Origin: an uncultured Bacilli bacterium
GTDB lineage: Bacteria; Bacillota_I; Bacilli_A; RF39; UBA660
Assembly (NCBI GenBank): GCA_910588025.1
Contig: CAJUQG010000002.1
Location: forward strand, 18,478-82,477
Direction: 5' to 3'
DNA: 64,000 nt
A program made the position numbers and the translations under genes. The notes beneath the pieces were generated by a model. It saw nothing but the letters and a program-made list of their open reading frames with translations, was not told where the DNA came from and made no database searches. Of the stretch, positions 10,431-59,398 are shown piece after piece (positions within the stretch are counted from its first letter, which is position 1; each line of letters starts with the position of its first letter).

Positions 10431-11360
10431 TTACCTCAACAATTCTAAATATTTCTTTAATGTTTCTATTTCCAGTTTAACTATTAATTTAACAAAATCT
10501 GTATAATCACCAGTTGTATGAGCTTTATCTAATGCTTCATAATATTCTAATCTATCTTCCTTTTTTATTATTACTGGATTAAACCCATAATTCATTAAAT
10601 CTAAATTCATAAGTAACCTTGCAGTTCTACCATTACCATCTACAAATGGATGAATTTTAACTAATTCACCATGTAATAAAGCAGCTTGAATAATTGGATG
10701 AAAATCATTCCAATTTTCGTAATTTAAAACTAACTTTTCCATTAACTCTGGAACTTTCAAGTAATCTGGTGGGATATGAGTTGCACCTTTTATAGTAACA
10801 TTTTCTCTTCTATATCTTCCTGCATTTTCATCACCAATATCTTTTAAAACTAATTGATGAATACCTTTGATATTCCACTCAGTAATCGGGTTATCTTCTT
10901 TTACCAAATCGTTTAAATATAAAATAGCCTTTTCATGATTGATAGCTTCTAAATGCTCTTTTATTGATTTTCCACCAACTGTAATTCCTTCTAATACAAC
11001 TTGTGTTTCTCTAAGTGTCAAAGTATTTCCTTCTATACCATTACTATTGTATGTCCATTCAAGATTAATTGAATCTTCTAATGATCTTAATGTTTCTTTT
11101 GGTATCGGTCTTTTATTATCTAATTCTCTCTTCAACTCATCAACTTCATTAAAATAATTAGCCTCTAAATCAATAATAAATTCTGTAAAATCTGGTTTAA
11201 TAACTCTTTTGTCTACTGGTTTTATTGCATCAACTGGAATATTCCAACTGTTTCCGTTTTTAACAGCTCCTTCAATCCTGCCATCTTGTAATAATTGCCT
11301 TATTCTTCTTTCACTAATATTCCATTTTTTTACAGCTTCTTTAGTAGTCATAAAATCCAA
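10431..11360 (-). CDS. Fic-family protein (class II: N-terminal HTH plus SxxxEG inhibitory motif plus Fic core)
   Basis: Fic motif HPFVDGNGRTARLL. The inhibitory-helix motif is TYNSNGIEGNTLT. The N-terminal ~55 aa look like an excisionase-type HTH (MDFMTTKEAVKKWNISERRIRQLLQDGRIEGAV). Confidence 0.85.
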   Translation of the reverse strand: MDFMTTKEAVKKWNISERRIRQLLQDGRIEGAVKNGNSWNIPVDAIKPVDKRVIKPDFTEFIIDLEANYFNEVDELKRELDNKRPIPKETLRSLEDSINLEWTYNSNGIEGNTLTLRETQVVLEGITVGGKSIKEHLEAINHEKAILYLNDLVKEDNPITEWNIKGIHQLVLKDIGDENAGRYRRENVTIKGATHIPPDYLKVPELMEKLVLNYENWNDFHPIIQAALLHGELVKIHPFVDGNGRTARLLMNLDLMNYGFNPVIIKKEDRLEYYEALDKAHTTGDYTDFVKLIVKLEIETLKKYLELLR

Positions 11361-11426
11361 AACGCTTCACCTCTATATATCATTATACCGCTAACGGTAG
11401 TTTTGGTCAACCATATAAGACTAATT

Positions 11427-12631
11427 TTATCTATATTTAATAATTTCATCTATAATATCTGATTTAACTGTTTGTTCAAATTTTTCACTTGCTTCTTTAA
11501 GTGTTTCATCAGTTGTTGATATATAATAATTTTCAGTAGCTTCTATCTTGCTATGCCCTAAAATGTCAGCTACATCTCTAATTTCTACACCATTTCTTAG
11601 ACTCTTTGTTGCATAACTTCCTCGTAAGTCATAGAATCTGCAATGTTCTATTCCCAATTCTGTATGAACCACTTTATATGGATATTTCATAATATCAGTT
11701 CCACTATAAACACCATTTTCTTTTCTAAATACTAAATCAAGATTTTCCAACAATTTAGCTTTTCTAACTGTTTCAACAATTCTATATTCTATTATTTTTC
11801 CATATTTATTTTTAACTTCTTCTAGATGATAATAGTGATACATTTTACCATATAACTTTTTAAAATTTTCTTGTTTCCTTTTATAATTTTTTAGAGCTAC
11901 TAATAAAGTATTACAAATATATACTTTTCTTACTCCATTTATTGTTTTTGTTGTACCTAAAAACCATTTCCCCTTTTCATCTTTAACTTTACTATAAACA
12001 TTATGCTCTATACTAATTATTCTCTTTTCAAGATCAATATTATCCCAAGTTAGTGCACAGACTTCACCGGTTCTCATTCCTGTAAAACATGCAACTAGAA
12101 ATGCACAGGTGAATGTTTCATTATTTTTAAATCTCTTTAAAATAAAATTCAATTTCTTCTTGAGTATAAATATGCCTTATAGTCTTTCTTTAATTGTTCT
12201 ATGTGCGGCAAACTTATAGTTATTGCTGGATTATAATTAATAAATCCAAATATATCAGTTGCAACTCTAAATGAACATTTTATTACTTTTACAAAATTTT
12301 TTAAATATCCATAAGAATAATCATATCTTCTACATACATCTATTAAATATTTATTTAACTGATAACTTGTAATTGCATTAAGTCTATAATGACCTAAATA
12401 AATCTTTAAATACTTATTAACAATAACTGAATACTCTTCTATTGTTCTATATTTTAAATTCACTTTGCAATAATTATCTAGCCAATAATCCAAATAATCT
12501 CCATATGACATATAGCTTTCCGTTTTACATCCTCCATTTTGATATTCATCATAAGCTTTTTGTCCTGCGGTAAATGCAGCATTTTTTGTTTTAAATCCAC
12601 TTTCTTTTTCCATTAACTTTTGTTGCTTCAA
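11427..12631 (-). pseudogene. tyrosine site-specific integrase, split by a frameshift into an N-terminal part (12149..12631) and a catalytic part (11427..12152)
   Basis: The catalytic domain has R (FTGMRTGEV), H-x-x-R (HCRFYDLRGSYAT) and the Tyr region (LGHSKIEATENYYI). The N-terminal ORF is a SAM-like core-binding domain. The two frames overlap at an AAGAAGAAA tract near 12149-12165. Confidence 0.7.
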
Positions 12632-25476: not shown

Positions 25477-25632
25477 AATCAATCTCCTTTCGCCATGCCA
25501 AGTTATAGGCATAGTAATTTCATTTCTAATGTATTATATCATATTTTTCTTTGGTTGCAAGTGAAACATCTATAATAATTATATGTAATGTTTTAATAAT
25601 TACGCTTTTCTTTCATTTTATTTGTTACATAA

Positions 25633-26159: not shown

Positions 26160-26702
26160 ATTTTATCAAGAAAAAAGATTCTTTTTAAGAACCTTTTAAG
26201 CTACAATGGTTTTTGTTGTGGTAAATTATAAATTAATTTTACGGCTTAGGTCGAGTTGAATTTCTCTACTTTCTACCTTTGGTTACCCGAGGGCGATTTC
26301 TCTTTCAAGAAAGCAACTAAGTGTTACCAGCTTAATTACTCGATTACCACTGAGTCCGCACTTTAATCCTTATAATTATAACATTCTAGAGGTTTTCCCT
26401 GACACCCACTATCCAATACTTATTCGCTTTTGCAAATACGATTTTGATAATCATCTATTTGATCGGGAATAGACTTTATTCATTATCTCCCACGTATTCA
26501 CTCACGACATGCACTTTTTTTATTTCTTGCGGGATTTTAGGAGATTCATTATATGCCATTATAACTTTCCTAAAATCTTAAATTATATAACCACCCCAAC
26601 TTGGGCAGAAGAAGCGAATTATATAAAGTGCTTTTCATGCAATTGGTAGATTTTTAGCCCTACCTTCATATTGTGTGTGTGACTAGAATAATGCACCACA
26701 TG
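26160..26702 (-). ncRNA. large structured noncoding RNA candidate (~525 nt, about 40% GC versus about 27% in the flanks), possibly an OLE-type RNA
   Basis: No ORF longer than 26 codons on either strand. GC is locally elevated (for example GGTTACCCGAGGGCGATTTC, CCACTGAGTCCGCAC). A consensus sigma-A promoter lies at its 5' end and a terminator at its 3' end. It sits immediately upstream of a 4-TM DxxxD protein. Confidence 0.45.
26168..26197 (-). terminator. intrinsic terminator/attenuator at the 3' end of the large noncoding transcript, just upstream of the membrane-protein RBS
   Basis: Minus strand GGTTCTT-AAA-AAGAATC followed by TTTTTT: a 7-bp stem with one G·U pair. Confidence 0.55.
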
Positions 26703-26709
26703 ACAATGA

Positions 26710-26738
26710 ATTATACACTATTTTTACTTTTTTGTCAA
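26710..26738 (-). promoter_or_regulatory. consensus sigma-A promoter TTGACA-N17-TATAAT driving the large ncRNA/leader
   Basis: Minus strand: TTGACA aaaaagtaaaaatagtg TATAAT. The -35 hexamer is plus-strand 26733-26738 and the -10 hexamer is 26710-26715. Confidence 0.7.
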
Positions 26739-36515: not shown

Positions 36516-37736
36516 TTATTTTTTGATTTTAATATTCATTTGATAATTGTCATTTAAATCCATTTCTTCTATTTCAATCACGAAACCTTGTTCATTCATT
36601 TGATTGATTAAATTCCGAACATTATTTATTGCAGTTTTTAAGTCAGTTCCTTTTTCCTCTTCTAACTTCTGCTCGTATGAAGGGTCTAATTTGATAATAG
36701 AAGCAACAGGATCAACAAGCATTTCTTCTTCTACTGGTTCTTTTACTTCTTCTATTTTATTTATGACAGGTTCATTGGTTCCAAAGAAAAAGGGATTTTC
36801 TTGTTCTTCGGTCTTTTTTACTACTGGTTCTTCTAAACCATCATCTAATATTTCCATGTCATTATTTAAAGGATTAATGACTTCTTTATTGGATGAGGAA
36901 ATTAAACCATCCATCATATTCATATTTGCGGCTTCATCTTCTAAAAAATTAAAAAATTTATTAGGAATGGTTGATGATGTCTCTTCTATTTTATTTTGTT
37001 TTGGTTCTTCCATTGGCTTCAACATACTTTCTACGTCATGTAATTCGCGAACTGGGTTAATGTCTGTAGCATTGTTCACAATTGATTCAAGATTTGGCGT
37101 TAAATTTACAAGTGGAATTTCTTCTCCAGCTGTTTCTTCTTTTAGTTTTTTTAGTTCCATATCTAATTGACGGACAGTCATTCTCTTTTCAATAATCTTT
37201 TTTAACCATTTTTTTTGTTCATCTTTCGCAAGCGATAATAAAGCTCTAGCATGGCGTTCAGAGATTTTTTCATTTAATAAAGCATTTTGAACGTCCTCAT
37301 CCAAATTTAAAAGTCTAAGTTTATTGGCTATAGTTGATTGAGAAACTCCCATTTTTTCTGCTAATTGTTCTTGAGTTAAGTAACCACGGTCTAATAAACT
37401 TTTATAAGATTTTGCTTCTTCTATCGCGGTTAAGTTTCGTCTTTGAATATTTTCAACTAATGCTACTTCTGCGCTTTTATTATCATCGATATTGGAAATA
37501 ATTGCTGGAACTTTTTGTAATCCAGCCATCGTTGCAGCTTTGTAACGTCTTTCTCCTGCAATAATCTCATATTTATCGCCAAGGCGTCTTAATACTAATG
37601 GTTGAATGATACCATGTTGTTTTATTGACTCTGAAAGTTCCGTTAGACCACCTTCATCAAATGCTAATCTTGGTTGGAATCGATTGGGTATAATATCTTC
37701 AATCGGTATTAGCTGAATATCCTTCTCCATATTCAC
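36516..37736 (-). CDS. ParB/Noc-family DNA-binding protein with a ~200-aa acidic C-terminal extension
   Basis: ParB N-domain (GIIQPLVLRR...IIAGERRYKAA) and an HTH (LTQEQLAEKMGVSQSTIANKLRLL). No parA/soj gene adjacent. It sits next to rsmG, as noc does. Confidence 0.75.
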   Translation of the reverse strand: MNMEKDIQLIPIEDIIPNRFQPRLAFDEGGLTELSESIKQHGIIQPLVLRRLGDKYEIIAGERRYKAATMAGLQKVPAIISNIDDNKSAEVALVENIQRRNLTAIEEAKSYKSLLDRGYLTQEQLAEKMGVSQSTIANKLRLLNLDEDVQNALLNEKISERHARALLSLAKDEQKKWLKKIIEKRMTVRQLDMELKKLKEETAGEEIPLVNLTPNLESIVNNATDINPVRELHDVESMLKPMEEPKQNKIEETSSTIPNKFFNFLEDEAANMNMMDGLISSSNKEVINPLNNDMEILDDGLEEPVVKKTEEQENPFFFGTNEPVINKIEEVKEPVEEEMLVDPVASIIKLDPSYEQKLEEEKGTDLKTAINNVRNLINQMNEQGFVIEIEEMDLNDNYQMNIKIKK

Positions 37737-44159: not shown

Positions 44160-44426
44160 TTATAAACTTAACATCGGAAAAAAGTCAAGAAATAACGGGT
44201 TATACACAAATTCACAATGATGTTTATAAGATTACACATTATCAACGTTGATAATTTTTCTATGTTGATAGTTTTATAAAACAAAGTTGTGGATAATGTT
44301 GATAAGTATATTTTTATCTGTTAGAATATGACTTCTAGAGCGTTGATAGATTGTGAAATCAATGTGAATTGCTGTTTCATACTTGTTTTTAAAATCACAA
44401 CTGCGTTAAAATGAAGTTGATAAAAC
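44160..44426. promoter_or_regulatory. oriC DnaA-box cluster upstream of dnaA
   Basis: One perfect TGTGGATAA at 44288-44296. Several TTATCAAC/GTTGATAA-type variants at 44200, 44240, 44249, 44262, 44297, 44342 and 44416. Confidence 0.7.
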
Positions 44427-45830
44427 GTGAGGGATTGTGGGGTGAAGTGGTTGAAGACGGAAACCGAAACATTATGGCAAAATTTCTTAGATCTCATCTA
44501 TAAAGAAATCAACGCGGCTTCATTTCATGCGTGGTTTCATGATTTGATTTTATTAAGTATTGACCGTTATCAACATCGAATTAAAGTCCAAGTTCCTATG
44601 GAAATTCACAAAAAAATTCTTGGTGATAATTATTATTCCCTCATTGAAGAAACGTTTCTTAAATTAACAGGAATTACTTATGACATTGAATTTTTATTAG
44701 AAGAAGAAAAAGAAGATATTGTGGATAACTTCCAAAAAGAAATTATCCAAGAGGCAAATATAGATAAAGTTTTAGAAGAAAAGTGGGAAACGAATTTAAT
44801 TTCTGAACTAAATTTTGATAATTATGTCGTGGGAGACTCTAATCGACTTGCCAAAGTAGCTGGTATGGCTGTAGCAGAATCGCCTGGTAAAATACATAAC
44901 CCATTATTTATATATGGTAAAAGTGGGCTAGGTAAAACACATTTAATGCATGCCATAGGTAATTATATTGTCGAACATTCAAATAAAAAGGTTTTGTATA
45001 CTACAAGTGATATGTTTATGAATGATTATACAGGTATTGCAAATTTAGAAAATAAGAATAATACAGTGGAGTATGCCAATAACTTTAAAAATAAATATCG
45101 AAATGTGGATGTATTAATTATCGATGATATTCAGTATTTAGTTGGTGCAGAGAAAACTCAACAAGAATTTTTCCACACATTTAATGCACTGCAACAAGCG
45201 AATAAACAAATTATTATTAGTTCAGACCGATCGCCAGATGATTTAAAATTATTAGAAGAACGGCTACGAAGTCGATTTATGTGGGGATTACCTGTGGATA
45301 TCTATCCTCCAGATTTTGAACTTCGTTGTAAAATCATTAAACAAAAAGTAAAAAATACGAGTATTGCTAATAAATTAGATGAAAATGTAGTGGAGTTTAT
45401 TGCAAATAGTTGTCAAAATGATGTTCGTTTTCTAGAAGGTACAATTAACCGATTAATGGCATATACAGCCATGGTTGTTCCAGATCATATTGACTTGGAG
45501 TTTGCCAATGAGGCTTTAAAAGATTTTATAAATAAAAATATTTATTCAGAAAATAGTATTGAGGGCATTCAAAATGCGGTCGCTGAGTATTACAATATTA
45601 CAATTAACGATTTAAAAGGAAAGAAAAAAAGTGCTAATATAGCTTATCCACGCCAAATCGGAATGTATCTTTGTCGAATGCTTACTGATGAAACTTTCCC
45701 ACGAATTGGCTTAGAATTTGGAGGTAGGGACCATTCGACTGTTATTCATGCTTGTGATAAAATAGAAAAGGATTTAAAAACAAATCCAACCCTTTCTAAT
45801 ACGATTAAAGAAATTAAAAATAAAATCTAA
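44427..45830 (+). CDS. dnaA: chromosomal replication initiator protein DnaA
   Basis: AAA+ motifs (GKSGLGKTHLMHA, box VII) and a C-terminal DNA-binding domain. The ORF begins at GTG 44427, but the TTG at 44451 (MKTETETLWQ...) is the more DnaA-like start. Confidence 0.9.
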   Translation: MRDCGVKWLKTETETLWQNFLDLIYKEINAASFHAWFHDLILLSIDRYQHRIKVQVPMEIHKKILGDNYYSLIEETFLKLTGITYDIEFLLEEEKEDIVDNFQKEIIQEANIDKVLEEKWETNLISELNFDNYVVGDSNRLAKVAGMAVAESPGKIHNPLFIYGKSGLGKTHLMHAIGNYIVEHSNKKVLYTTSDMFMNDYTGIANLENKNNTVEYANNFKNKYRNVDVLIIDDIQYLVGAEKTQQEFFHTFNALQQANKQIIISSDRSPDDLKLLEERLRSRFMWGLPVDIYPPDFELRCKIIKQKVKNTSIANKLDENVVEFIANSCQNDVRFLEGTINRLMAYTAMVVPDHIDLEFANEALKDFINKNIYSENSIEGIQNAVAEYYNITINDLKGKKKSANIAYPRQIGMYLCRMLTDETFPRIGLEFGGRDHSTVIHACDKIEKDLKTNPTLSNTIKEIKNKI

Positions 45831-45975
45831 TTGTGGATAAAATTATGAAATCTGAATAAACATCCACATCCAATTTTTAAAATTGGCTTAGCAAATATCT
45901 AAAATTTATGAGCTATGCACATTATAAACGACATTATTATAACTAATATAAATATGAATAAAAAAGAAAGAAGGA
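45831..45975. promoter_or_regulatory. second oriC segment (DnaA boxes plus AT-rich unwinding element) between dnaA and dnaN
   Basis: Perfect TGTGGATAA at 45832-45840, a degenerate CATCCACAT, then a more than 80% AT stretch. Confidence 0.6.
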
Positions 45976-47261: not shown

Positions 47262-47720
47262 ATGGAAAGTTATGAGATAAATAAAGATACCTTAGCTTTA
47301 ATTGCATTAAAAGATAAAACAGAAGTGTTTGAAGAAAATGATCATTTTTTTGTAGATAAAGTGGCGAACGAAATTATGGAAGCAAGTTGCGAGTATTTTG
47401 GAAGTTCGTTAGCAGGTAGACAAAAAGGAACAGAAAATTTAATTGGTAGTACTTATAAGGCTCCAGTTATTGTAGAAGAGTCTCAAGAAATAATCTTTTT
47501 TCCAACAGAATCTCCAAGACGAGAAGAGTGTTCATGGATTTCTTTACAAAAAATCAATAAATATTTTAGAATGGGTGATAAAATAGTTGTAGAGTTTAAA
47601 AACGGAAGTAGAGTAGTTCTAAATATTTCTTATGGAAAACTGGATAATCAAGTCATGCGCGCAACTCGATTAGAATCAGTTTTAAGAGGAAGAAAATACG
47701 ATAAAAATAGTTTTAAATAA
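47262..47720 (+). CDS. comK: ComK-family competence transcription factor homologue
   Basis: ESYEINKDTLALI..., CEYFGSSLAGRQKGTENLIGSTYKAPVIVEESQEIIFFPTES..., ECSWISLQKIN..., FKNGSRVVLNISYGKLDNQVMRATRLESV. These align block-by-block with B. subtilis ComK. Confidence 0.7.
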   Translation: MESYEINKDTLALIALKDKTEVFEENDHFFVDKVANEIMEASCEYFGSSLAGRQKGTENLIGSTYKAPVIVEESQEIIFFPTESPRREECSWISLQKINKYFRMGDKIVVEFKNGSRVVLNISYGKLDNQVMRATRLESVLRGRKYDKNSFK

Positions 47721-50831: not shown

Positions 50832-53291
50832 ATGGATAGAATAATTGAAAATAATATTGTTAATGAAGTAAAAGATTCTTTTTTAGATTATGCTATGAGT
50901 GTTATTACAGCTCGTGCTTTACCAGATTTGCGTGATGGATTAAAACCTGTTCATCGTCGTATTTTGTATTCGATGTATGAATCTAGTTATACTCCTGATA
51001 AACCTCATCGTAAAAGTGCAAGAATTGTTGGGGATGTAATGGGAAAATATCATCCTCATGGGGATTCTTCTATTTATGATGCTATGGTTCGTATGGCACA
51101 ATCTTTTAGTTTTCGCCATATGCTTGTAGATGGACATGGTAATTTTGGTAATATGGATGGCGATGGCGCTGCAGCGATGCGTTATACAGAAGCAAGATTA
51201 TCTAAGTTATCTCTTGAAATGATAAGAGATATCAATAAAGAAACAGTAAATTTTAGTCCGAATTTTGATGAAACGGAAAAAGAACCAGATATTTTACCTA
51301 GTAGATTTCCTAATATTTTAGTAAATGGGACGATGGGAATTGCGGTTGGAATGGCTACTAATATTCCTCCCCATAATTTAGGTGAAGTGATTGATGGTTG
51401 TGTAGCGTATATTGATAATCATGAAATAACAACTGATGAATTAATGCAATATATTAAAGGGCCAGATTTTCCTACTGGAGCTACTATTTTGGGTAATAGT
51501 GGTATTAAAAAAGCATATGAAACAGGTCGTGGCTCTATAACAATTCGCGGAAAAGTTGAAATTGAAGAAAATAATGGTAAGTCACGGATTATTGTTACAG
51601 AGTTACCATATCAAGTAAATAAAGCTGAATTTCAATCTCGTATTGGTGAACTAGTAAGGGATAAAATTATAGATGGAATTAGTGAATTACATGAAGAATC
51701 TAATTTAGAAAATCCCGTTCGTGTTGTTATTTATTTGAAAAGAGATGCCAATGCGAATGTTGTATTAAATAATTTATATAAGCATACACAGTTACAAACA
51801 ACGTTTGGTATTAATTTCTTGATGTTAGATCAACAAACTCCTAAGATTTTGCCACTGAAAGATATTATTTCGAAATATATTGATTATCAGAAGGAAATTA
51901 TTATACGTAGAACTCAATATGATTTGAGAAAAGCACAAGAACGCGTACATGTGTTAGAAGGATTAAAGATTGCTTTAGATCATTTAGATGAAGTTATTCA
52001 GACAATTCGTAATTCTAAAACTGATGTCATTGCAAAAGAGCAATTGATGCAACTATTTGGTTTAGATGATATTCAAGCTAATGCTATTCTTGAAATGAAA
52101 TTACGTCGTTTAACTGGTTTAGAGCGTGAAAAGATAGAAAATGAGTTATCAGAATTGTTAAAAACTATTGAAGAATTGCAAGCAATATTGGCTAGTGAAG
52201 AAAAGGTTTTAGCAATTATTAAAGAAGAATTGTTGGAAATAAAAAATAAATATGCTGATGAACGTCGTACTAATATAGATATGACAGCAATTGAGTATAT
52301 TGAAGATGAATCTTTAATTCCTGTAGAGAATATCATGATTGCTTTGACAAATAAAGGTTATATTAAACGTACTACTGTAGATACCTTTAAATCTCAAAAT
52401 AGAGGTGGAGTAGGTGTAAAAGGTATGGGAACGAATGAAGAAGACTTTGTTGAGCATTTAATTAACTTATCCACACACGATTATGCATTATTCTTTACCA
52501 ATAAAGGTAAGGTTTATCGTTTAAAGGGTTACGAAATTCCAGAATTTAATAGACAGTCTAAAGGATTGCCAATTATAAACTTGTTACAAATTGAGAAGGA
52601 TGAAATGATTAATAGTGTTATAAACATTAGTAATGATCATGATTATAAATATTTGTTATTTGTAACGAAACAAGGAATTGTAAAGAAAACAGCTATAAAT
52701 GAATTTGATAATATACGTACTTCTGGTAAAATATGTATTAATTTACGAGATAATGATGAACTCATAGCTGTTAAGAAAACAACAGGTGATAATTTAATTC
52801 TTTTAGGATCTAGTGCTGGTCGAATGGTTAAATTTGAAGAAAATGAGCTTAGAGTAATGGGTAGAACTGCAACAGGTGTGAGAGGTATTAATTTAGGTGA
52901 TGCAACTTGTGTTGGTTCTGAAATTGCTACAGACAATGATAAGGTATTGATTGTTACAGAAAAAGGATACGGGAAACAAACAAAAGTTTGTGAATATCGT
53001 GGTACAAAACGAGGTAGTAAAGGTGTAAAGGCTTTAAATGTTACAGATAAAAACGGAAATATTTCAGCATTTAAAGTAGTAAAAGAAAATCAAGATGTCA
53101 TTATAATAACTAATACAGGAATGTTAATTCGAATGCCTTTAGATCAAGTTTCAGTTTTAGGTAGAGTTACTCAGGGTGTTAGATTGATTCATTTAAAAAA
53201 TGAACAATTAGTTTCAACTATTAGTTTAGTTGACCATGAAGAAAATTTAGATGATATAGATGATGAAGAAATATCAAACAATAATGAATAA
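50832..53291 (+). CDS. gyrA: DNA gyrase subunit A
   Basis: Active-site Tyr region [10 protein letters not shown], the QRDR, and the C-terminal beta-pinwheel repeats. Confidence 0.95.
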
Positions 53292-53320
53292 AAAGAATGT
53301 TCCACGTGAAACATTCTTTT
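53291..53320. repeat. palindromic element copy 1 (AAAAGAATGTTCCACGTGAAACATTCTTTT); doubles as the gyrA terminator hairpin
   Basis: A 13-bp-arm inverted repeat around the CACGTG centre, followed by a T-run. Confidence 0.7.
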
Positions 53321-53461
53321 TATTGTTGATAACTAAATAATAAAATTACTTGTAATATTTCTTCTAAATAAAAAATTAGCTAATAAATTAACGTTTTATA
53401 TTTAAAAACTTATTCATTGCTATTAAAATAATTATATTTAGAGTTAAATTCTCATTTTTTT

Positions 53462-53491
53462 CATTCAATGTTCCACGTGAAACATTGAATG
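53462..53491. repeat. palindromic element copy 2 (CATTCAATGTTCCACGTGAAACATTGAATG)
   Basis: Same 20-bp core AATGTTCCACGTGAAACATT as copy 1. Confidence 0.7.
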
Positions 53492-53654
53492 TGTATAACT
53501 TGTTTTTTTACTTAATAATATCAAAAAAATGTTTTTGTCTTTTAAGAAATTGTTAATTTTTTTTATTATTTTTAGTAAAATTGATTAATTTTTCTAATTA
53601 AAATAGGCAAATTTGGTTTTTTTTATTATCTTTTAAATTTTAGTGTGAATAAAT

Positions 53655-53677
53655 ATGTTTCACGTGGAACATTGAAT
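53655..53677. repeat. palindromic element copy 3 (inverted orientation: ATGTTTCACGTGGAACATTGAAT)
   Basis: Exact reverse complement of the 23-nt core of copy 2. Confidence 0.7.
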
Positions 53678-53715
53678 TATAGTTGATAAATATATTTATT
53701 TTTGATAGAATTTAT

Positions 53716-53797
53716 TTGTGCAACAAATATATTGCAAAATGGTCAGGATCGGAAGATAGCAGCCAATGTAATCCCTATTTGTGTGCACTTTTTTTAT
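53716..53797 (+). ncRNA. ffs: small (4.5S-type) signal recognition particle RNA
   Basis: The hairpin GTGCAACAAATA...TATTTGTGTGCAC encloses GGTCAGGATCGGAAGATAGCAGCC, which matches the SRP domain-IV consensus GUCAGGUCCGGAAGGAAGCAGCC. A T-run follows. Confidence 0.65.
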
Positions 53798-53809
53798 TGA
53801 AGGTGAAGT

Positions 53810-55934: not shown

Positions 55935-56234
55935 ATGAATATGCAAAGTATTATGGCACAAGCTCAAAAAATGCAAAGAGATTTGCAAAAAAAGAAAGAA
56001 GAATTAAATCAAGAATTATTTCCCGGGAAATCTGATTGGGTGGAAGTAGTTTTTAATGGTAAAAAAGAATTAGTTTCAGTAAAGATATTGTTTGAAGGTG
56101 ATATTACTTCAGATGATAAAGAGATGCTAGAGGATATGTTTTCTTTAGCTGTAAAAGATGCAATGAATCAAATAGAGAAGTCTTTTCAAGAAAAAATGGG
56201 ACCATATGCAAATATGCTTGATGGTATTATGTAA
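55935..56234 (+). CDS. ybaB: nucleoid-associated protein YbaB/EbfC
   Basis: MNMQSIMAQAQKMQRDLQKK... AGAAGG RBS; conserved dnaX-ybaB-recR order. Confidence 0.85.
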   Translation: MNMQSIMAQAQKMQRDLQKKKEELNQELFPGKSDWVEVVFNGKKELVSVKILFEGDITSDDKEMLEDMFSLAVKDAMNQIEKSFQEKMGPYANMLDGIM

Positions 56235-58704: not shown

Positions 58705-59398
58705 TTTGTATGATTATTCTTCTATGAAAATTTATCAATATGATGAAGCTTTTAAATTTTCATTAGATTCAATTTTATTGGCCGAATTAGTTCAAATTCA
58801 TAAGAATGATCGAAATATACTGGATTTATGTACAGGAAATGCTGTAATTCCTTTGATACTTTCGACAAAAACATCACTTTCTATCGTAGGAATAGAATAT
58901 CAAAAAGAAATTTATGAGTTAGCATCTTTGTCAGTTAATTATAATCAAAAAAATCATCAAATTACTTGTATTAATGACGATATATTAAATATTGATAAAT
59001 ATTTCCCGGGAAATAACTTTGATATTATTACTTGTAATCCTCCTTATTTTAAATATCATAATAAGGAATTTTTAAATCATGATAAATTAAAACAAATTGC
59101 TAGACATGAGGTTAAGATCACTTTAGAGAATGTTATTCGAATAGCTTCATGTAATATAAAAGAAAAAGGAAACTTTTACATGGTTCATATTTGTGAAAGA
59201 TTGCAAGAAATTATGGTTTTGTTAGAAAAATATCATTTTCGTATGAAAGATTTATATTTTGTTTATCCTAATAGAAGTAATAAAGCATTTTTAGTCTTGT
59301 TTCGTGCTATAAAGGGCGGTAATATAGGTATGAAAATTCATAAACCAATTTATTTGGATGAATTAACAACTTATCAAAATATGTTTAAAGGAGAATGA
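58685..59398 (+). CDS. tRNA (adenine37-N6)-methyltransferase-like (YabB/TrmN6 family)
   Basis: ITCNPPYF motif and the SAM region LDLCTGNAVIP. There is no yabA between ricT and this gene. Confidence 0.7.
   Translation: MKKILNDLYDYSSMKIYQYDEAFKFSLDSILLAELVQIHKNDRNILDLCTGNAVIPLILSTKTSLSIVGIEYQKEIYELASLSVNYNQKNHQITCINDDILNIDKYFPGNNFDIITCNPPYFKYHNKEFLNHDKLKQIARHEVKITLENVIRIASCNIKEKGNFYMVHICERLQEIMVLLEKYHFRMKDLYFVYPNRSNKAFLVLFRAIKGGNIGMKIHKPIYLDELTTYQNMFKGE

Follow-up and report, generated by a model that had tools for sequence, protein, structure and literature searches.

Three identical palindromes lie in the spacer between gyrA and ffs, in the origin region of an uncultured Bacilli bacterium that is known from metagenomes only. 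The locus raises the question of whether these palindromes are chromosomal parS, where the ParB of a ParABS segregation system is loaded onto DNA, and, if so, which of the ParB-family proteins of this species would bind them.

Palindromes of the gyrA-ffs spacer

The window, i.e. the whole stretch of 64,000 nucleotides that was analysed, spans the origin region in the genome of a spore-forming member of the Bacillota with 28% GC. The GC skew changes sign and the gene strand switches at about 44 kb, DnaA boxes were found at 44200-44305 and at 45832, and the genes are arranged as rnpA-yidC-jag-mnmE-mnmG-rsmG on the minus strand and, after these, as dnaA-dnaN-comK-recF-gyrB-gyrA on the plus strand. 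The ComK-family gene sits in a block that otherwise has the canonical order dnaA-dnaN-recF-gyrB-gyrA, and its insertion was found in all same-species contigs. Genes for SpoIIR and SpoVT are also located within the window, as is an OLE (ornate large extremophilic) RNA, which is present at full length in this gut-associated low-GC Bacilli genome. Coordinates of the features are collected in Table 1.

Each of the three 16-bp sites agrees with TGTTNCACGTGNAACA at every position, and TGTTTCACGTGGAACA of copy 3 is the exact reverse complement of TGTTCCACGTGAAACA of copies 1 and 2. The 18-bp palindrome ATGTTCCACGTGAAACAT is common to the three sites, which are packed within 375 bp of the one spacer. 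Copy 1 starts 7 bp past the gyrA stop codon and copy 3 ends 11 bp short of the -35-like hexamer that precedes ffs. Beyond 18-22 bp the copies have nothing in common, and in the window spacer neither a tandem repeat nor, at ≤3 mismatches, an additional degenerate parS or a degenerate NBS (Noc-binding site) was detected.

The first-pass annotation of this DNA had described the palindromes as resembling parS, with one mismatch in copy 3, and as clustering near the origin. The likeness proved to be complete, since each site is an exact match to TGTTNCACGTGAAACA on one strand; the mismatch given for copy 3 does not exist and arose because a single strand had been read. The origin-proximal placement was borne out as well, with DnaA boxes around dnaA and the sites 8.9-9.2 kb to the right of the dnaA start and oriC, on the origin side of the GC-skew switch.

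At ≤2 mismatches, chance alone would give about 0.13 matches across the window, and the observed count was reached in 0 of 100 shuffles, while our own estimate for exact parS is about 1e-4 per 64 kb at 28% GC. The sole other window match at this threshold, at 25553, has 2 mismatches. With ≤3 mismatches allowed, five extra window matches were obtained, each with 2-3 mismatches; as this is a chance-level yield, the distribution of matches is bimodal. No further copy at ≤1 mismatch was present in 81.5 kb of contiguous DNA of the species (window-equivalent -7.7 to +73.8 kb), where the copies near oriC amount to these 3 sites in one spacer, and none at ≤2 mismatches in the 17.5 kb added on both sides of the window. 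Copy 1 is retained in six further same-species assemblies; the same-species contigs (L001-L006) are 98-100% identical and therefore have no comparative power.

DnaA-box-like 9-mers with one mismatch were observed on the minus strand 3-10 bp from each parS (53324-53332, 53490-53498 and 53644-53652). They were considered as a real feature and then treated as chance, with TTATNCACA found near 17 of 266 parS of related genomes. The density of TTATNCACA in the spacers of relatives was 0.68 per kb against 0.25 per kb, a modest difference of the kind expected for AT-rich intergenic DNA.

Table 1. Coordinates of the features discussed, in window positions unless a locus (L) is named
Feature	Position	Strand	Remarks
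parA-parB operon	L010, 15938-17603		window-equivalent -2.8 to -4.5 kb
parA			261 aa; ParA/CbiA/AAA_31-family; overlaps parB start
parB	L010, 16713-17603		296 aa
OLE RNA	26202-26715	-	242.7 bits
Noc-type ParB paralog	36516-37736	-	adjoins rsmG
oriC/dnaA region	44200-45840	+	dnaA 44427-45830; flanking DnaA boxes; GC-skew and gene-strand switch
ComK-family gene	47262-47720	+	between dnaN and recF
gyrA	50832-53291	+	left edge of spacer; Pfam DNA_topoisoIV and DNA_gyraseA_C
Spacer, 415 bp			between gyrA and ffs
Extended 38-nt palindrome around parS copy 1	53287-53324	+	terminator-like hairpin directly after gyrA
parS copy 1 (predicted)	53298-53313		TGTTCCACGTGAAACA; exact match; 18-bp palindrome 53297-53314
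parS copy 2 (predicted)	53469-53484		TGTTCCACGTGAAACA; exact match; 18-bp palindrome 53468-53485
parS copy 3 (predicted)	53656-53671		TGTTTCACGTGGAACA, inverted; exact match; 18-bp palindrome 53655-53672
Promoter-like site	53683-53711		TTGATA-17-TAGAAT; before ffs; promoter scan
ffs (small SRP RNA)	53707-53804	+	right edge of spacer; Rfam RF00169, 56.1 bits
Exact NBS	56018-56031		ATTTCCCGGGAAAT; inside ybaB (codons ELFPGK)
Exact NBS	59001-59014		ATTTCCCGGGAAAT; inside methyltransferase gene (codons YFPGN)
NBS/parS tandem array	L043, 11048-12387		125-bp unit, 10.7 copies
NBS/parS tandem array	L083, 3813-4309		64-bp unit, 7.8 copies
NBS/parS tandem array	L087, ~11150-11800		75-bp period
NBS/parS tandem array	L076		84-bp period
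NBS/parS tandem arrays	L071, L041, L086		further loci of relatives

Two ParB-family proteins and their predicted sites

A ParB/Noc-family protein encoded 16 kb away had been proposed in the first-pass annotation as the protein loaded at the palindromes. Such a gene was indeed found 15.6 kb from the sites, and several of its properties would suit a centromere-binding ParB. It is the only ParB-family gene of the window, it occupies the classic place next to rsmG, the ParB_N and HTH_ParB domains of its product are intact and include GERR, and its homologs are annotated in the sources as 'ParB/RepB/Spo0J family partition protein'. With the Noc model TIGR04285, the protein scored 289 bits, below the cut-off of 315 bits.

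Other properties mark the protein as Noc-type. TIGR04285 is its best NCBIfam match, and among solved structures the Noc proteins of Geobacillus and Bacillus (197 and 177 bits) outscored Spo0J (162-173 bits). Preference for parS or NBS is decided by four residues, RTAG in ParB and QKKR in Noc, where parS binding goes with R at the first position plus G (or C/S/T) at the last, and NBS binding with Q first, R last and K or R at one middle position (Jalal et al., PMC7383237). Residues Q133, K139, N144 and R161 of the paralog align to Q158, K164, K169 and R186 of B. subtilis Noc, and this Q-K-N-R set, which is invariant across the Noc-like family, places the protein in the NBS-binding class of that study. 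The rsmG-adjacent paralog is predicted to bind NBS, not parS, and thus belongs to the setting of the parS system, not to the system itself.

Two exact NBS (ATTTCCCGGGAAAT) were found in the window, 2.3 and 5.3 kb away from the parS spacer, against about 1e-4 expected by chance according to our own estimate for a GC-rich 14-mer at 28% GC. The three palindromes are not NBS and did not turn up in the search with ATTTCCCGGGAAAT at ≤3 mismatches. The combination of a Noc-type paralog carrying the Q/K/R residues with exact ATTTCCCGGGAAAT is shared with the Noc-NBS systems of B. subtilis and S. aureus, whereas the half-site of the three palindromes is TGTTNCAC and that of NBS is TATTTCCC. Both in-gene NBS encode F-P-G using GC-rich codons in a 28%-GC genome; the one in ybaB is kept at the same codon in the close relatives L016 and L020, and the one in the methyltransferase gene in L014, L016, L020 and L025.

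The N-terminus of the paralog differs from that of B. subtilis Noc, where an amphipathic helix is needed for membrane binding and nucleoid occlusion (PMC8429893). All Noc-like homologs sampled (62-100% identity, ~400-415 aa) were without an N-terminal extension, so that a helix of the B. subtilis type is missing, and the window paralog has an in-frame stop six codons before its start. In the Noc-like proteins, an acidic linker of ~160 aa contains the invariant PNKFFNFLEDEAANM motif together with a PFFF motif that is semi-conserved, and the same build, with the linker and no N-terminal extension, was seen in ~120 homologs of 400-415 aa. The PNKFFNFLEDEAANM motif resembles the N-terminal SRFFGLGEKE helix of B. 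subtilis Noc.

A tblastn search of the window with a Soj query yielded no ParA and no second ParB. Exact-protein look-ups walking past the left end of the window (125.8-kb MAG contig, GCA_948624705.1) located a parA-parB operon on the same contig, followed downstream by mscS, DUF951, an AbgT-family (ABG_transport) gene and ychF. The ParB of this operon opens with the canonical KRKALGKGLEQLF peptide and has GERR. Its specificity positions are R/M/T/G ('GKSRSHVTNMLGLLTLP...LSMGHARAL'), i.e. the 'RXXG' parS-specific class, and among solved structures the protein matches B. subtilis Spo0J best (212.7 bits versus 146.5 for Noc), the reverse of the pattern of the Noc-like protein. The operon ParB is accordingly the predicted parS binder, in place of the Noc-type paralog.

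The operon lies ~48 kb to the left of dnaA and ~57 kb from parS, on the opposite side of oriC, and no parS was found inside the parB gene; a distant parB of this kind, with no parS of its own, is compatible with known systems and gives no support from linkage. As parA-parB and rsmG-noc are ~39 kb apart, the classic rsmG-noc-soj-spo0J block is split in this species. An integrase/Fic/KilA-N island (window ~8.5-12.6 kb) is situated between the two.

That the palindromes load the rsmG-adjacent protein is contradicted by its Noc-type matches, its Q-K-N-R residues, the two exact NBS and the separate ParA-paired ParB with parS-type residues. We consider it very unlikely that this protein acts as the centromere-binding ParB at these sites; weak cross-binding of the Noc-like protein to parS is possible.

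Conservation in relatives

Species-representative genomes were scanned with the GyrA C-terminal domain, which gave 77 relatives at 58-88% identity and three Bacillaceae outgroups. The relatives are all uncultured gut MAGs of the types 'Bacilli', 'Tenericutes', 'Mycoplasma sp. CAG:956' and 'Clostridium sp. CAG:710'. Exact parS, between 1 and 10 of them, were located directly downstream of gyrA in 69 of the 77, with at least three in 44; among the eight relatives with none, most contigs stop within a few hundred bases of gyrA. Exact parS were absent from the three outgroups. Altogether, 266 exact parS were counted in 143.5 kb of gyrA-downstream DNA (≤2.5 kb per locus) versus 0 in 1,083,985 bp of flanking sequence.

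As in the window, ffs usually follows 50-150 bp after the last parS. The window spacer is like the spacers of relatives at the parS cores alone. In the pooled site logo, an A adjoins the 16-mer in 97% of sites and no conservation is visible further out, leaving the 18-bp core ATGTTNCACGTGNAACAT as the only conserved element. Together, the fixed position downstream of gyrA, the likeness confined to the core and the end of the logo there show that an 18-bp protein-binding site is under purifying selection and that the number, spacing and orientation of its copies turn over freely.

Alternatively, the palindromes could act mainly as hairpins in RNA or DNA, serving as intrinsic terminators or attenuators between gyrA and ffs, with a coincidental likeness to parS. 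Copy 1 lies in a hairpin with a 17-pair stem, versus 0.0 expected in shuffles (terminator scan), that begins within the last codons of gyrA; its arms are A- and T-rich and would read as a terminator both ways, and the RNA fold reaches -14 kcal/mol (z = -5.3). Copy 2 has shorter extra complementary arms (z = -2.8), whereas copy 3 has none outside the parS core (z = -0.1), and of the three only copy 1 looks like an intrinsic terminator, a GC-containing stem-loop with a T-tract behind it at a gene end. In a same-species variant, a base of the outer arm of copy 2 is changed and the core is intact. Relatives carry up to 10 copies per spacer, in which the 18-bp core is conserved and stem extensions and T-tracts are not, and a terminator would not be expected to match the parS consensus at 16 of 16 positions in three separate copies. 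A primarily hairpin-forming function is therefore highly improbable. Copy 1 plausibly doubles as the gyrA terminator besides its predicted parS role, so that part of its palindromy could serve RNA; this would make termination at most a secondary role of one copy.

Three identical copies (one inverted) in AT-rich intergenic DNA, and the sites inside tandem repeat units in some relatives, could also suggest short repeats or miniature mobile elements of the REP or MITE type, dispersed and unconnected with segregation. This is hardly credible, since the window copies share only their short core and form no tandem repeat, no copies occur elsewhere in the 81.5 kb of the species or the 1.08 Mb of relatives' flanks, and the position is fixed across 69 species. 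Neither dozens of copies nor a random spread, the outcome named in the first-pass annotation as pointing to a repeat family, was seen within these two bodies of sequence, which favours parS.

Probable partition sites, known systems and composite arrays

The sites combine the 16-bp consensus with origin proximity and positional conservation in relatives, and the genome encodes a ParB with parS-type residues and a ParA partner. Given the exact sequence, the fitting position, the cognate ParAB encoded in the genome and the conservation of the same position throughout the lineage while the spacer diverges, we read the three palindromes, from sequence evidence, as chromosomal parS belonging to a ParABS segregation system, with a probability of about 0.88.

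By analogy with established ParB biology, ParB dimers would nucleate at each 16-18-bp palindrome, and ParB would bind CTP, close into a sliding clamp and spread across the neighbouring kilobases (PMC7022226, PMC7333895 and CTP-clamp work cited therein). One partition complex would form beside oriC, where it would interact with ParA/Soj and probably load SMC. Three sites in 375 bp should raise the loading rate at one place and would in this way behave as one centromere.

Features of this kind are well known, and the window adds a further instance. Spo0J(ParB)/Soj(ParA)-parS of B. subtilis, another member of the Bacillota, has an identical 16-bp site (TGTTNCACGTGAAACA there, TGTTCCACGTGAAACA in the window), origin-proximal sites, a Soj-Spo0J operon to the left of oriC and a separate rsmG-adjacent Noc paralog. 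Its parS are dispersed over hundreds of kb, with one inside spo0J, and noc-soj-spo0J are adjacent, whereas the window species has its three sites in a single short cluster, none in parB, and noc ~39 kb from parAB. Numbers of parS per bacterium range from 3 to 22 (Mycobacterium smegmatis 3, Streptococcus pneumoniae 4, Corynebacterium glutamicum 10, Myxococcus xanthus 22, and B. subtilis 10, with 8 in the origin domain), mostly in the origin domain, with a consensus that agrees with the window sites (PMC7022226). Compact chromosomal clusters likewise consist of few to many near-consensus sites in the origin domain that together form one centromere (PMC7022226). The cluster of the window lineage differs in being fixed to the gyrA-ffs spacer, on the side of oriC opposite parAB. 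In M. smegmatis, S. pneumoniae, C. glutamicum and M. xanthus, the parS clusters mostly adjoin parAB.

Exact NBS were interspersed with parS in 37 of the 77 relatives, with at least three alternations in 20. The alternating sites often form tandem units of 64-126 bp, each with one NBS and one parS, in up to ~11 units (Table 1). NBS density was ~1 per kb in the gyrA-downstream stretches versus ~1 per 35 kb outside. In the spacer of the window species and of its closest relatives (L013-L022), the sites are almost exclusively parS. Flanks of 10 kb were taken from the relatives, a span that leaves the noc and parB genes beyond reach save for a partial noc in L021.

In plasmid F, sopC consists of 12 tandem repeats of 43 bp. 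The head-to-tail units of the relatives, not of the window, are alike in arrangement, but these arrays are chromosomal and their unit pairs one parS with one NBS, the sites of two distinct clamp paralogs. In contrast to sopC, the window species has three non-tandem sites. No published parS/NBS tandem arrays were found in open-access text, an absence that is not proof of novelty, and we know of no description of composite ParB/Noc site arrays.

One reading of these arrays, which we put forward tentatively and regard as rather doubtful, takes the gyrA-ffs spacer for a dedicated composite centromere that evolves fast and in which the sites of two paralogous CTP-dependent clamps are amplified together, often in strictly alternating tandem units. 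ParB would load at parS and a Noc-derived protein at NBS, the latter being recruited to the origin or partition complex. On this tentative reading, the Noc-derived clamp would have lost the N-terminal membrane helix and gained a 160-aa linker bearing the invariant PNKFFNFLEDEAANM, and might serve, for example, in origin tethering or replication control instead of chromosome-wide occlusion, and the window species would represent a parS-only state with its NBS 2.3 and 5.3 kb off.

For the window itself, the result is a good annotation, not a discovery. Reading the palindromes as parS would fix the centromere of an uncultured gut Bacilli species and assigns each of the two ParB paralogs, by prediction, its own sites: the ParB from the parAB operon receives parS, and the rsmG-adjacent Noc-like protein receives NBS, which corrects a tempting mis-assignment based on proximity. 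For the lineage, it suggests a rule by which the centromere is always the spacer after gyrA. The value of the finding lies in this corrected annotation and in the entry point that it offers to the parS/NBS arrays at the level of the lineage. If these arrays are functional, they would provide a ready-made system in which to study the sharing of, or competition for, one DNA by a pair of related sliding clamps, and would reveal what a Noc without the N-terminal membrane helix does.
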